Of a stretch of DNA of 64,000 bases, positions 10,307 through 23,032 are shown in pieces. Position numbers and translations under genes: made by a program. Each line of letters begins with the position of its first letter. The stretch's first letter is position 1. This DNA is from Escherichia coli (GTDB taxonomy: Bacteria > Pseudomonadota > Gammaproteobacteria > Enterobacterales > Enterobacteriaceae). The notes under the pieces were generated by a model. The model was not told where the DNA came from, did not search any database, and worked only from the letters and a program-made list of their open reading frames with translations. The stretch lies in the NCBI RefSeq assembly GCF_051903065.1, contig NZ_CP178438.1. The stretch is one strand, 5' to 3'.

Positions 10307-10984
10307 CTAAAGCATAAACCGATAACCAATACCGGTTTCAGTAATGAAATGGCGGGGGCGAGCGGGATCCTGTTCCAGTTTTTGTCGCAGATGCCCCATA
10401 TAAATCCGCAAATAATGACTGTGTTCGACCGCGTTTGGTCCCCATACCTGGTTAAGGAGCTGGCGCTGGGTGAGCACTTTTCCAGCATTGTTGAGCAGCA
10501 CCGCCAGCAGGCGGAATTCAATCGGCGTGAGATGCACCTCTTCCTCACCCCGGTGAATCACGCGGGCGGCTAAATCGACGGTAACATCGGAAAATTTCAC
10601 CAGCGGATCGGGCGCGGCGGTGGCGGAGTGGCGGCGTAATGCGACGCGCAGACGGGCCTGCAATTCGCCAATGCCAAACGGCTTACTCAGATAATCATCT
10701 GCTCCGGCATCCAGCGCGGCGATTTTGTCGCTCTCTTCGCTACGTGCGGAAAGCACAATCACCGGCACCGCGCTCCACTGGCGCAGGTCGCGGATAAACT
10801 CAATCCCATCACCATCGGGCAGGCCGAGATCGAGAATAATCAAATCTGGCTTACGGGTAGCCGCTTCCAGCAAGCCGCGTTGCAGCGTTTCGGCCTCATA
10901 GACGCGCATCCCGTCGCCCTCCAGCGCCGTGCGCAGAAAGCGACGAATAGCCTGTTCATCTTCAACAATCAGAACGTTTGTCAC
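10307..10984 (-). CDS. kdpE: response regulator KdpE (OmpR family)
   Basis: 225-aa ORF, receiver domain ([17 protein letters not shown]...DLGLPDGDG) plus winged-helix domain; adjacent to kdpD. Confidence 0.9.
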   Translation of the reverse strand: MTNVLIVEDEQAIRRFLRTALEGDGMRVYEAETLQRGLLEAATRKPDLIILDLGLPDGDGIEFIRDLRQWSAVPVIVLSARSEESDKIAALDAGADDYLSKPFGIGELQARLRVALRRHSATAAPDPLVKFSDVTVDLAARVIHRGEEEVHLTPIEFRLLAVLLNNAGKVLTQRQLLNQVWGPNAVEHSHYLRIYMGHLRQKLEQDPARPRHFITETGIGYRFML

Positions 10985-16309: not shown

Positions 16310-17983
16310 TCAGGAGAGATATTCCGCCACCGGACCAAGCGCCAGGGCAGGGATAAAGGTCAGTGCGCCAACCAGCAACACGGTGCCGATTAACAGGCCA
16401 ACAAACAGCGGGCCGTGCGTTGGCAGCGTGCCGGAGCTGGCGGGTTGGCTCTTTTTACTCACCAGCGAACCGGCAATTGCCATCACCGGGATAATCACCC
16501 CGAAGCGACCGACAAACATGCAGAACGCCAGTAAACAGTTCCAGAACGGAGAGTTGGCGCTTAATCCGGCAAAGGCGCTGCCGTTGTTGTTAGCGGCGGA
16601 TGACACGGCGTACAGCACTTCGCTAAAACCATGCGGGCCAGGGTTGAGCATGGCGCTACGTCCGGCGTCGGTCATCATTGCCAGCGCCGCGCCCATCAGC
16701 ACCAGCGTCGGGGTGACCAGAATCGCCAGTGCAGTCAGTTTCATCTCACGTACGTCGATTTTTTTACCCAGATATTCCGGTGTACGACCAATCATCAGCC
16801 CGGCAATAAACACCGCCAGCAGGACAAACAGCATCATGCCGTAAAGACCAGAACCGACACCGCCGAATACCACTTCACCAATTTGCATCAGCCACATCGG
16901 CACCATGCCACCGAGAGCGGTAAACGAATCATGCATCGCAATCACCGCGCCACAGGACGCCGCCGTAGTCACGACCGCAAACAGGCTACTGACCAGCACG
17001 CCGAAACGGCTCTCTTTACCTTCCATATTGATGCTGCTGTCTGCGCCGAGCGCCAGCAGATGAGGATTACCCTGAACTTCTGCCCACATCACCACGCCTA
17101 CGCAGATGACAAAAATCACTGACATCGCCCACAGCAACATGCGCCCCTGGCGGCGATCGCCCGTCACTTCACCAAAGGCAAAGCACAGCGCTGTTGGGAT
17201 CAAGAAGATCGCCAGCATCTGCACGAAGTTGGTCAGTGCGGTTGGGTTTTCAAACGGATGCGACGAGTTGGCATTAAAGAAGCCACCGCCGTTAGTACCG
17301 AGCATCTTGATCGCTTCCTGAGAAGCCACCGGACCCATTGGTAACAGCTGTTGCGCTCCTTCAACGGTATTCACTGCCTGATAGGGCAGAAAGTTTTGCA
17401 GCGCACCTTGTTGAATAAAAAACAGTGCGATCACCAACGCCACAGGGACGAGCACCCATAACGTGATGCGTAGCAGATCGACCCAGGCATTCCCGAGTGT
17501 GCTCATGCTCTGGCGGGTAAATGCACGGATGAAGGCAAAAATCACCGCAATCCCGCTGGCGGCAGAAAGAAAGTTTTGCACTGTTAAGCCCGCCATCTGG
17601 CTGAAATAGCTCAACGTGGTTTCACCGCTATAAGATTGCCAGTTGGTATTCGTGACAAAGCTGACGGCGGTATTCAGCGCCAGATCCCACGACAGCCCCG
17701 GCAACTGCTGTGGATTAAGCGGCAGATAGTGCTGACCGAGCAACATAAAAAACAGCACCGCCAGCCCCAGCATGTTCAGGCCGAGAATGGCACAAAGATA
17801 TTGCTTCCAGTTCATCTCATGGTCAGAGACGCCAGGTAAACGAAAGAGTATACGTTCAACGCCCGCTGTACCTGGAAGAGGAATGTCATTAATCAGCCGC
17901 GCCAGCCCGCTGCCTAAAGGACGCGCCAGCACCATTAACACCAGTAAAAACGTGGCGATCAGTAAGAACCCTTGCGCAGCCAT
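16310..17983 (-). CDS. kdpA: K+-transporting ATPase subunit A
   Basis: Polytopic membrane protein from [24 protein letters not shown]...; start chosen at internal Met, and the ATG overlaps the kdpF stop (ATGA). Confidence 0.9.
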
Positions 17984-18072
17984 CAGAACGCCTCCGCATT
18001 GATCAGGGCATAAACCAGATAACCCAGTAATAAAAACACCAGCAATACGCCGGTTATCACGCCTGCACTCAC
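17983..18072 (-). CDS. kdpF: K+-transporting ATPase small subunit F
   Basis: 29-codon hydrophobic ORF ([30 protein letters not shown]) with apparent GTG start preceded by ggagg; stop overlaps kdpA start. Confidence 0.65.
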
Positions 18073-18145
18073 AGTGCACCTCCAGTGGCCTAAAAGTGAT
18101 ACCGGAAGGGTAGAATTCTGGCTGCAAAGATTTCGCAAAAATCTG

Positions 18146-18175
18146 CGGGCGGGGTGTAAAAAAAGTATAAAAATG
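18146..18175 (-). promoter_or_regulatory. KdpE operator of the kdpFABC promoter
   Basis: Reverse complement reads CATTTTTATACTTTTTTTACACCCCGCCCG, which matches the KdpE-binding sequence as I recall it from the KdpE-DNA literature; it lies about 75-100 bp upstream of kdpF. Confidence 0.7.
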
Positions 18176-18383
18176 GCAAAAGCCATGATTTAACTAATGT
18201 TTAGTATTAATTTAACTTTTGTGTAACTTAATTACACGGTGAATGTAAATAAACCATCAATAAGCAAAAATAAGTGGTCGGATGAGTAGTAAAATTACAC
18301 AAAAGGCGGTACTATTTTCATCAGATAAACAAATTCATTTTCCGGTGCCATTCACCGGGTAGATACAAAAGGGGGAGAAAAGT

Positions 18384-18590
18384 ATGGAACTCTACAGAGA
18401 ATATCCTGCATGGCTTATCTTTTTACGCCGTACTTATGCGGTTGCAGCGGGCGTTCTGGCGCTGCCTTTCATGCTTTTCTGGAAAGACCGCGCCCGCTTT
18501 TACAGCTACCTGCATCGCGTCTGGTCGAAAACCAGCGATAAACCGGTGTGGATGGATCAGGCCGAAAAGGCAACTGGTGATTTTTACTGA
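18384..18590 (+). CDS. ybfA: small inner-membrane protein YbfA (DUF2517)
   Basis: 68-aa [38 protein letters not shown]...; position between kdp and rhs as in E. coli. Confidence 0.8.
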
Positions 18591-18615
18591 TTGCTGAGTT
18601 CTGAATACATTGAAA

Positions 18616-18645
18616 ACCGCCAGCAGAAACGCTGGCGGTTTTTTG
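18616..18645 (+). terminator. rho-independent terminator after ybfA
   Basis: Stem accgccagc/gctggcggt, loop agaaac, then TTTTTT. Confidence 0.7.
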
Positions 18646-18832
18646 TATCAGGAAGATGTTCAGAGGAATATTTAGACACCGTTATACCAATCGAAACATA
18701 TATTCATGAAATATATATAAATATTTTCCTAATTGTTTCTATCTGACGGATATCTCACTTAAGGCTTTCTTATAAATCTGTAGGGTTTTGCCTGTCAGCG
18801 GACAAATAACCCGATAATACAAGGATGAGCAG

Positions 18833-21800
18833 ATGAGCGGAAAACCGGCGGCGCGTCAGGGCGACATGACGCAGTATGGCGGTAGCATTGTCCAGGGTTC
18901 AGCCGGGGTGCGCATCGGTGCCCCCACCGGCGTGGCCTGTTCGGTGTGCCCCGGCGGGGTGACGTCCGGCCATCCGGTCAATCCGCTGCTGGGTGCAAAG
19001 GTCCTTCCCGCTGAAACCGACATCGCCCTGCCCGCCCCGCTGCCGTTCATTCTCTCCCGCACCTACAGCAGTTACCGGACAAAAACGCCCGCGCCGGTGG
19101 GGAGCCTCGGCCCCGGCTGGAAAATGCCTGCGGATATCCGCTTACAGCTGCGCGATAACACACTGATACTCAGTGATAACGGCGGCAGAAGCCTGTATTT
19201 TGAGCACCTGTTTCCCGGTGAGGACGGTTACAGCCGCAGCGAGTCACTGTGGCTGGTGCGCGGCGGCGTGGCGAAACTGGATGAAGGTCACCGGCTGGCC
19301 GCACTCTGGCAGGCGCTGCCGGAAGAGCTTCGCCTGAGTCCGCATCGTTATCTGGCGACAAACAGTCCGCAGGGGCCGTGGTGGCTGCTCGGCTGGTGTG
19401 AGCGGGTGCCGGAAGCGGATGAGTTGCTGCCTGCGCCGCTGCCGCCGTACCGGGTACTGACCGGGCTGGTGGACCGCTTCGGGCGCACACAGACGTTCCA
19501 CCGCGAAGCCGCCGGTGAATTCAGCGGCGAAATCACCGGCGTGACGGATGGTGCCGGGCGTCACTTCCGGCTGGTACTGACCACGCAGGCGCAGCGGGCA
19601 GAAGAAGCCCGGCAGCAGGCCTCTTCCGGCGGGACGGAACCGTCCGCTTTTCCTGATACCCTGCCGGGTTACACCGAATATGGCCGGGACAACGGCATCC
19701 GTCTGTCTGCCGTGTGGCTGACGCACGACCCGGAATACCCGGACAACCTGCCAGCCGCGCCGCTGGTGCGCTATGGCTGGACGCCACGCGGCGAACTGGC
19801 GGCAGTGTATGACCGCAGCAATACACAGGTGCGCAGCTTTACTTACGATGATAAATACCGGGGCCGGATGGTGGCGCACCGTCACACGGGCCGACCGGAA
19901 ATCCGTTACCGTTACGACAGCGACGGGCGGGTGACAGAGCAGCTTAACCCGGCGGGCTTAAGCTACACCTACTGTTATGAGCAAAACCGCATCACCATCA
20001 CCGACAGCCTGGACCGCCGTGAAGTGCTGCACACGCAGGGCGAAGGCGGGCTGAAGCGGGTGGTGAAAAAGGAACACGCGGACGGCAGCGTCACGCAGAG
20101 TCAGTTTGATGCGGTGGGCAGGCTTAAGGCACAGACGGATGCCGCAGGCCGGACAACAGAATACAGCCCGGATGTGGTGACGGGACTCATCACGCGCATC
20201 ACCACACCGGATGGCAGGGCATCGGCATTTTACTATAACCACCACAGCCAGTTAACGTCAGCCACCGGGCCTGACGGGCTGGAATTGCGCCGGGAATATG
20301 ATGAATCCGGCCGTCTGATTCAGGAAACCGCCCCTGACGGCGATATCACCCGCTACCGTTATGATAATCCACACAGTGACTTACCCTGCGCAACGGACGA
20401 TGCCACCGGCAGCCGGAAAACCATGACGTGGAGCCGTTACGGCCAGTTGCTGAGCTTCACCGACTGTTCCGGTTATGTAACCCGTTATGACCATGACCGT
20501 TTCGGGCAGATGACGGCGGTGCACCGCGAGGAAGGGCTGAGTCAGTACCGCGCATACGACAGCCGTGGACAGTTAATTGCGGTGAAAGACATGCAGGGCC
20601 ATGAAATGCGGTATGAATACAACGCCGCCGGTGACCTGACCGCCGTCATTGCTCCGGACGGCAGCAGAAACGGGACACAGTACGATGCGTGGGGAAAGGC
20701 CATCCGTACCACGCAGGGCGGGCTGACGCGCAGTATGGAATACGATGCTGCCGGACGGGTCATCCGCCTGACCAGTGAAAACGGCAGCCATACCACCTTC
20801 CGTTACGATGTACTCGACCGGCTGATACAGGAAACCGGCTTTGACGGCCGCACACAGCGTTATCACCACGACCTGACCGGCAAACTTATCCGCAGCGAGG
20901 ATGAGGGGCTGGTCACCCACTGGCACTATGACGAAGCAGACCGCCTCACGCACCGCACCGTGAATGGCGAAACCGCAGAGCGGTGGCAGTATGACGAACG
21001 CGGCTGGCTGACAGACATCAGCCATATCAGCGAAGGGCACCGGGTGACGGTGCATTACGGGTATGATGAGAAAGGCCGGCTGACCGGTGAGCGTCAGACG
21101 GTGCATCACCCGCAGACGGAAGCACTGCTCTGGCAGCATGAGACCAGACACGCTTACAACGCGCAGGGACTGGCGAACCGCTGTATACCGGACAGCCTGC
21201 CCGCCGTGGAATGGCTGACCTACGGCAGCGGCTGGCTGTCAGGCATGAAGCTCGGCGACACACCGCTGGTGGATTTCACCCGCGACCGCCTGCACCGGGA
21301 AACGCTGCGCAGCTTCGGCCATTATGAACTCACCACCGCTTATACCCCTGCCGGGCAGTTACAGAGCCAGCACCTGAACAGCCTGCAGTATGACCGCGAT
21401 TACACCTGGAACGACAACGGCGAACTCATCCGCATCAGCAGCCCGCGCCATACCCGGAGTTACAGCTACAGCAACTCCGGCAGGCTGACCGGCGTTCACA
21501 CCACCACCTCAACTCTGGATATCCGCATCCCGTATGCCACGGACCCGGCAGGTAACCGCCTGCCCGACCCGGAGCTGCACCCGGACAGCACCCTCAGCAT
21601 GTGGCCGGATAACCGTATCGCCCGTGACGCGCACTATCTTTACCGGTATGACCGTCACGGCAGACTGACAGAGAAAACCGACCTCATCCCGGAAGGGGTT
21701 ATCCGCACGGATGATGAGCGCACCCACCGGTACCATTACGACAGTCAGCACCGGCTGGTGCACTACACGCGGACACAATATGCAGAGCCGCTGGTCGAAA

Positions 21801-23032
21801 GCCGCTATCTTTACGACCCGCTGGGCCGCAGGGTGGCAAAACGGGTATGGCGACGTGAACGGGACCTGACGGGCTGGATGTCGCTGTCACGGAAACCGCA
21901 AGTGACCTGGTACGGCTGGGATGGCGACCGCCTGACCACGATACAGAACGACAGAACCCGCATCCAGACGATTTATCAGCCGGGGAGCTTCACACCACTC
22001 ATCAGAGTTGAAACTGCCACCGGTGAACTGGCCAGAACGCAGCGCCGCAGCCTGGCGGATGCCCTTCAGCAGTCCGGCGGTGAAGACGGTGGCAGTGTGG
22101 TGTTCCCGCCGGTGCTGGTGCAGATGCTCGACCGGCTGGAAAGTGAAATCCTGGCTGACCGGGTGAGTGAGGAAAGTCGCCGCTGGCTGGCATCGTGCGG
22201 CCTGACGGTGGAGCAGATGCAAAACCAGATGGACCCGGTGTACACGCCGGCGCGAAAAATCCACCTGTACCACTGCGACCATCGCGGCCTGCCGCTGGCG
22301 CTTATCAGTGCGGAAGGGGCTACAGAATGGTGCGCAGAATACGATGAATGGGGCAACCTGCTGAATGAAGAGAACCCGCAACAGCTGCAGCAGCTCATCC
22401 GCCTGCCGGGTCAGCAGTATGATGAGGAGTCCGGCCTGTATTACAATCGCCACCGCTATTATGACCCGCTGCAGGGGAGGTATATCACTCAGGATCCGAT
22501 TGGGCTGAAGGGGGGATGGAATTTTTATCAGTATCCGTTGAATCCGGTTCAGTATATAGATTCAATGGGACTGGCATCAAAATATGGACACTTAAATAAT
22601 GGCGGATATGGAGCGAGACCCAACAAACCGCCTACGCCCGATCCAAGTAAATTGCCAGACATAGCGAAACAATTAAGACTGCCATATCCTATTGACCAGG
22701 CCAGTAGTGCGCCTAATGTTTTCAAAACATTCTTCAGAGCATTAAGCCCTTACGACTACACACTGTATTGCAGGAAGTGGGTAAAACCAAATCTGACTTG
22801 TACGCCACAGGATGATCCCCAGTATCCAGGGATGGATACAAAGACAGCAAGTGATTACCTGCCACAGACAAATTGGCCAACAACTCAATTACCACCAGGA
22901 TATACTTGTGCAGAACCCTATTTATTCCCAGACATTAATAAACCCGATGGGCCAGCAACAGCAGGGATAGATGATTTGGGTGAAATTTTAGCTAAAATGA
23001 AACAGAGAACATCGAGAGGAATAAGAAAATGA
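18833..23032 (+). CDS. rhsC: Rhs-family polymorphic toxin (rhsC-type): GC-rich YD-repeat core plus AT-rich variable C-terminal toxin domain
   Basis: 1399-aa ORF with many YD/RHS repeats (…YRYD…GR…), a core-end motif …[39 protein letters not shown], and a compositionally distinct tail; sits between ybfA and ybgA. Confidence 0.9.
22576..23032 (+). other. variable C-terminal toxin domain of the Rhs protein (about 150 aa, no recognisable catalytic motif)
   Basis: Begins just after the DPIGL…DSMGL core boundary; codon usage switches abruptly from GC-rich to AT-rich; Pro/Cys-containing sequence with no HNH/nuclease/deaminase motif that I can recognise. Confidence 0.6.

Follow-up and report, generated by a model that had tools for sequence, protein, structure and literature searches.

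The small subunit KdpF stabilises the KdpFABC pump. In Escherichia coli K-12 MG1655 it is encoded by the first gene of kdpFABC (b4513, YP_588443.1; 728732..728821), which comprises 29 codons, starts with GTG and shares one base with kdpA (727059..728732), the last base of kdpF being the first base of kdpA. The region upstream of the operon was described as a target of KdpE. The oligonucleotide CATTTTTATACTTTTTTTACACCCCGCCCG was bound by KdpE in EMSA and ultracentrifugation (PMC3264566). The same paper cites Sugiura 1992 for a KdpE footprint that spans positions -72 to -50 relative to the start of kdpFABC transcription.

To this system we compared a stretch of 64,000 nucleotides of E. coli DNA (contig NZ_CP178438.1), referred to as the window in the following, that carries a kdp locus on its minus strand. 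The locus is almost certainly the normal 5' end of an E. coli kdpFABC operon with kdpF starting at GTG. The following features were assigned (window coordinates):

16310..17983, minus strand: kdpA coding sequence, 557 codons plus stop, next gene in the operon
17981..17983, minus strand: kdpA ATG start codon; base 17983 is common to the kdpF TGA and the kdpA ATG (TGATG)
17983..18072, minus strand: kdpF coding sequence, 29 codons plus TGA stop, equivalent to K-12 b4513
17985-17983, minus strand: kdpF TGA stop codon, after 28 sense codons from the GTG
18070..18072, minus strand: kdpF GTG start codon, the annotated start in K-12 and in six other E. coli records
18079..18083, minus strand: Shine-Dalgarno sequence GGAGG (GGAGGT), six bases 5' of the kdpF GTG
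18107..18112, minus strand: TACCCT, probable -10 hexamer of the KdpE-dependent kdpFABC promoter
18146..18175, minus strand: 30-bp KdpE binding site (kdpFABC_BS), 0 mismatches to the published oligonucleotide, chance expectation 0.00
18155..18160, minus strand: KdpE half-site S2, TTTACA, 5 bp after S1
18166..18171, minus strand: KdpE half-site S1, TTTATA (half-site definition from PMC3264566)
18184..18186, minus strand: in-frame upstream ATG that opens a 67-codon ORF, judged not to be a start

Read on the minus strand, the kdpF region runs ...ggccacTGGAGGTgcactGTGagtgcaggcgtgata...gcggaggcgttcTGATGgctgcgcaa... An earlier note on this DNA, made from the sequence alone, had described a 29-codon kdpF frame that begins with GTG behind GGAGG, has a stop codon overlapping the kdpA start and lies downstream of an intact 30-bp KdpE operator. 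Each of these statements was borne out, as the frame occupies 18072-17983 on the minus strand with GGAGG at 18083-18079, the overlap consists of the single shared base 17983 and the operator is matched exactly at 18175-18146. The span of 17983-18175 given there extends exactly between the kdpF stop and the position at which the KdpE oligonucleotide begins.

To rank the possible start codons, pairing of the 20 nt 5' of each in-frame candidate with the 3' end of 16S rRNA was predicted. The best predicted duplex was that of the annotated GTG:

GTG 18072: -10.6 kcal/mol
GTG 18060: -4.6 kcal/mol, the next best in-frame candidate
ATG 18186: +1.0 kcal/mol

As judged from the sequence, initiation of kdpF at GTG 18072-18070 behind GGAGG is supported. 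For the formylated 29-mer an average mass of 3099.7 Da was computed, and the products of alternative starts would have masses of 2785 Da (25-mer) and 7481 Da (67-mer). Literature searches for ribosome profiling, for a mass of KdpF and for a paper that names the GTG start outright yielded nothing usable. In an abstract from 1999, mass spectrometry reportedly showed KdpF to be a formylated peptide of ~3100 Da.

The 29-residue product aligned from its first to its last residue (1-29 of 29) with the NCBIfam equivalog NF011332 (76.7 bits, cut-off 56, E = 9.6e-22) and also scored above the cut-offs of Pfam PF09604 (28.9 bits, cut-off 21.2) and TIGR02115 (34, cut-off 26.85). As expected of a KdpF family member, for which a size of ~25-32 codons is typical, the small ORF is located directly upstream of a co-oriented kdpA in a kdp operon. 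It is identical to KdpF chains in the PDB, which are present as 29-residue chains in 14 entries (6hra_D), and 25 solved KdpFABC entries contain a 100% identical KdpF, for example 6hra_D and 5mrw_D. From this identity it would follow that the peptide belongs to the KdpFABC complex as a single transmembrane helix.

Downstream of kdpA, ORFs that fit kdpB, kdpC, kdpD and kdpE by size and order are found on the same strand. For kdpA itself, a 605-aa ORF that opens at TTG 18127 in the kdpA frame is only the mechanical maximum ORF. The kdpE gene (window 10981-10984, minus strand) also has a GTG start (gaggatatGTGAcaaac), which follows GAGGA and has a 4-nt overlap (GTGA) with the end of kdpD. GTG starts with stop-start overlaps are therefore found in no fewer than two (kdpF and kdpE) of the six kdp genes. 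A non-ATG start is unremarkable. On the other side of the locus, ybfA (68 aa; window 18384-18590, plus strand) is divergent from kdpF and is followed by an Rhs-family ORF of 1399 aa (window 18833-23032, plus strand), which occupies the position of rhsC in K-12. Thus, the gene order matches that of K-12.

Conservation of the kdpF start was analyzed with a degenerate DNA pattern that covered the C-terminal half of KdpF and the overlapping kdpA ATG, applied to a single genome of each species. At least 120 loci were obtained, and those among the matches listed comprise 48 from Enterobacterales and 72 from other orders; as the pattern forced a TRATG overlap and the YLxYAL...ExF motif, this is a biased sample that is uninformative on conservation of the stop-start overlap. 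Omission of Pantoea stewartii, in which the N-terminal half is disrupted, left 47 Enterobacterales species for analysis. The codon homologous to the GTG of the window is a start codon in all 47 of them, namely GTG in 39 and ATG in eight (among the matches listed; the 39:8 ratio counts related species and not independent events). ATG was found in two Budvicia species, Erwinia endophytica, Mangrovibacter, Hafnia, Enterobacter cloacae DSM 26481, Tatumella and Morganella. Among the matches listed, GGAG is present within 20 nt 5' of the start in 46 of the 47 species, and in no fewer than 39 of them its end lies 7 nt 5' of the start codon. KdpF of other Enterobacterales (NF011332/PF09604) shares with the E. 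coli peptide the length of 29 residues, the GGAGG spacing and the location directly upstream of kdpA. Outside the Enterobacterales, a start codon stands at the exact 29-residue position in 42 of the 72 loci (28 ATG, 12 GTG and 2 TTG, among the matches listed).

Column entropies point in the same direction. Across the 47 Enterobacterales species listed, they were 0.91/0.41/1.25 for the three codon positions of codons 2-17, and flat, at 1.56/1.50/1.39, in the 12 pseudo-codons upstream of the start. Since the periodicity is confined to the region after the start, the coding signal begins at the kdpF start codon. Conservation of the start codon, the GGAG and the periodicity together constitute strong comparative evidence, at the level of sequence, for translation from the annotated codon. 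As to the species left out, kdpF of Pantoea stewartii CCUG 26359 has its N-terminal half out of frame with the conserved C-terminal half (CECRRDNRH...) and retains GGAGGT upstream; this probably reflects a frameshift, a pseudogene or an assembly error.

These data also bear on a start at the internal GTG 18060-18058 (codon 5), which would yield a peptide of 25 residues. The codon is a possible start and is preceded by a weakly pairing sequence (see above), but the strong GGAGG is correctly spaced for 18072 and not for 18060. Moreover, only 12 of the 47 Enterobacterales species (among the matches listed) have a start codon at codon 5, which reads GTA, CTG, GTT, ATT or others elsewhere, coding periodicity and conserved residues are already present in codons 2-4, and the alignment to NF011332 begins at residue 1. 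We consider this internal start very improbable, and initiation at 18072 remains the preferred reading.

Upstream of kdpF, S1 and S2 lie inside the exact 30-bp match and would make up a KdpE operator with two half-sites. Binding of KdpE to the window site is to be expected, as the same sequence was bound in vitro (PMC3264566). A TTTAYA-N5-TTTAYA motif lies 99 nt 5' of the start codon in the window, and in 39 of the 48 other Enterobacterales loci (among the matches listed) it was found at a distance of 95-101 nt. In 41 of the 47 species (among the matches listed), the first base of a TAnnnT hexamer is located 37-42 nt 5' of the start codon. The position of the KdpE site agrees with TACCCT as -10 element and with a fixed spacing of ~99 nt to the start codon across genera. 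With the conserved -10-like hexamer and the footprint as cited in PMC3264566, transcription would start at ~18100-18103. A scan for consensus sigma-70 promoters found no site in this region, as expected for the kdpFABC promoter, which is activator-dependent.

Variation was observed around the half-sites in other E. coli genomes. In strain B20105, 1 nt is deleted from a T-run 5' of S1 (about window 18173-18169), which leaves the half-sites intact and shortens the flank of the 30-bp site. Substitutions in the CACCCCGCCCG tail of the KdpE site occur in other strains.

Several structures in the leader were considered and set aside. In the predicted E. coli fold, a hairpin over the ribosome-binding site (CACUUUUAG paired with CUGGAGGUG) is formed, but it was no better than shuffled controls. 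The E. coli leader fold had a z-score of 0.19, and the 47 Enterobacterales leaders (among the matches listed) had a mean folding energy of -5.3 kcal/mol vs -5.5 kcal/mol for shuffled sequences, with one of 47 at <=0.05. Placement of the start codon in the triloop of a GCACU-GUG-AGUGC palindrome was attributed to chance because the downstream arm is non-complementary in most genera; nor is this hairpin the minimum-energy fold of the 61-nt leader. An Rfam scan of 17500-18900 (E up to 1) returned only two sub-threshold chance hits, both outside the feature. Terminator-like hits numbered two, against 0.5 expected, both with short stems, at 18054-18038 inside kdpF and at 18186-18173. The latter, on the minus strand, consists of an inverted repeat of 5 bp (ATGGC-TTTT-GCCAT) with a T-run behind it, and it overlaps both the upstream ATG and the KdpE site at the 5' edge of the latter. 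It may be a chance occurrence, since there is no gene upstream on this strand that would need a terminator.

The earlier note had stated that no in-frame ATG exists between the GTG and the upstream in-frame stop, and that such an ATG with a better ribosome-binding site would speak against the GTG. The first statement does not hold, as an ATG is found at 18186-18184, 38 codons 5' of the GTG and one codon after the in-frame TAA 18192-18190. The true product could then be a 67-residue protein of which KdpF is only the C-terminal part. The frame is indeed open from this ATG to the kdpF stop, and the same ATG and open frame are present in K-12, E. albertii, Citrobacter werkmanii and C. youngae. However, the ATG has no Shine-Dalgarno sequence, as reflected in its unfavourable predicted pairing, and it is located 9 nt upstream of the KdpE site. 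Taking the footprint at -72 to -50 together with TACCCT, it would lie ~85 nt upstream of the 5' end of the mRNA. Since the ATG is devoid of a ribosome-binding site and upstream of the promoter, the conclusion of a GTG start stands.

Comparison with other genomes likewise argues against a 67-residue product. Within E. coli, the upstream ATG is ATT in strain R4 and GTG in SCPM-O-B-8794, and it is out of frame in B20105 owing to the T-run deletion; beyond E. coli, it was detected only in Escherichia albertii and two of three Citrobacter species (among the matches listed). In 15 Enterobacterales species (among the matches listed), an in-frame stop occurs 1-7 codons 5' of the 29-aa start, in Enterobacter asburiae and Dickeya undicola just one codon upstream, and an N-terminal extension is therefore impossible there. 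The upstream columns lack codon periodicity, the family models, NF011332 among them, align to residues 40-67 only of the 67-aa ORF, and nothing is annotated at this ORF in K-12. The 67-residue protein deserves next to no credence and is effectively refuted, which leaves the 29-codon frame from GTG 18072. The longest frame, 67 codons from ATG, is misleading in this case, and kdpF would be mis-called if the longest ORF or the first ATG were chosen naively.

That an ancestral ATG was changed to GTG specifically in this strain, or that the GTG is a mistake in the window sequence, is refuted and has hardly any probability left: eight other Enterobacterales species do carry ATG at the position (among the matches listed; no other support was found), but GTG is the majority state across the Enterobacterales (among the matches listed), it is present in K-12 and in each of the seven other E. 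coli records that were inspected, and 5,120 of the 5,423 complete E. coli genomes with the locus are 100% identical over a stretch of 57 nt that reaches from the -10 region to codon 5, while a query with the ATG variant was matched exactly in none (best 98.2% in all 5,405 E. coli genomes hit). This population result consists of identity bands, in which the start codon was read in SCU-301 only (GTG) of the 303 non-identical genomes, and a few of these could still differ at the start codon. In six further E. coli records, selected across the identity range, a kdpF of 90 nt is annotated from the same GTG.

Variants of kdpF itself were seen in three E. coli strains. SCU-301 (NZ_CP051751.1) has an in-frame deletion of 12 nt (ATAACCGGCGTA; cf. 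window 18057-18046) between two GGCGT direct repeats, which results in an annotated KdpF of 25 residues without ITGV and with the GTG start kept. In WCHEC035148, CTG is changed to CGG, placing an arginine in the middle of the transmembrane helix (L16R), and KdpF of O157:H7 FRIK944 carries T7A and N25H.

Initiation at GTG 18072 can be placed in the following model. KdpE~P would bind the direct repeats TTTATA and TTTACA (18171-18155) and activate a weak promoter, whose -10 element is probably TACCCT at 18112-18107, and transcription from near 18100 would give a leader of ~28-31 nt. The strong GGAGG at 18083-18079 would then recruit ribosomes, which would initiate with formyl-methionine at GUG 18072-18070. 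The product would be KdpF, a membrane peptide of 29 residues with a single helix that forms part of the potassium pump KdpFABC. The overlap of the kdpF stop with the kdpA AUG (UGAUG) is an arrangement typical of translational coupling, and the two genes may be coupled in this manner.

It is conceivable, albeit unlikely in our view, that the GUG start is kept by selection because it tunes the ratio of KdpF to KdpA synthesis or the hand-on of ribosomes to kdpA. The idea is based on the finding that GUG does not vary among at least 5,120 genomes of E. coli and is used by the majority of Enterobacterales. A very strong Shine-Dalgarno sequence followed by a weaker start codon, combined with the UGAUG overlap, might then act as a setting device. 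If so, replacement of the GTG by ATG would have a measurable effect on assembly of the complex or on fitness at low K+.

With respect to annotation, the analysis confirms the annotated start of a 29-codon gene and an intact regulatory site, which is useful only as a sanity check for small-ORF annotation. The earlier note had rated its observation a minor point, and rightly so.

The closest described system is the kdp locus of K-12 MG1655, which is base-for-base identical to the window from 18234 down through kdpF into kdpA. The wording of the earlier note, GTG in place of ATG, suggests a peculiarity of this sequence, and the note had proposed a comparison with the K-12 start codon; K-12 kdpF (b4513) is annotated with the same GTG, and the peculiarity disappears. 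Differences from K-12 are restricted to the upstream part, in the spacer between kdpF and ybfA, where the window reads CACCGTG at ~18235-18237 (minus strand) vs CATCCTG in K-12 (two substitutions) and an A-run at ~18340 (minus strand) differs in length by 1 nt. E. coli EC1515 is 100% identical to the window over 321 nt. The KdpE operator (Sugiura et al. 1992; Narayanan et al. 2012, PMC3264566) matches the window at 30 of 30 positions without any difference, and in other E. coli strains it varies only outside the half-sites, for example CACCCC to CACCAC or GCCCG to GTCCG. Taken together, the GTG start, the leader and the KdpE site of the window correspond to textbook E. coli biology that is already annotated and already known, and nothing in them is new relative to K-12.
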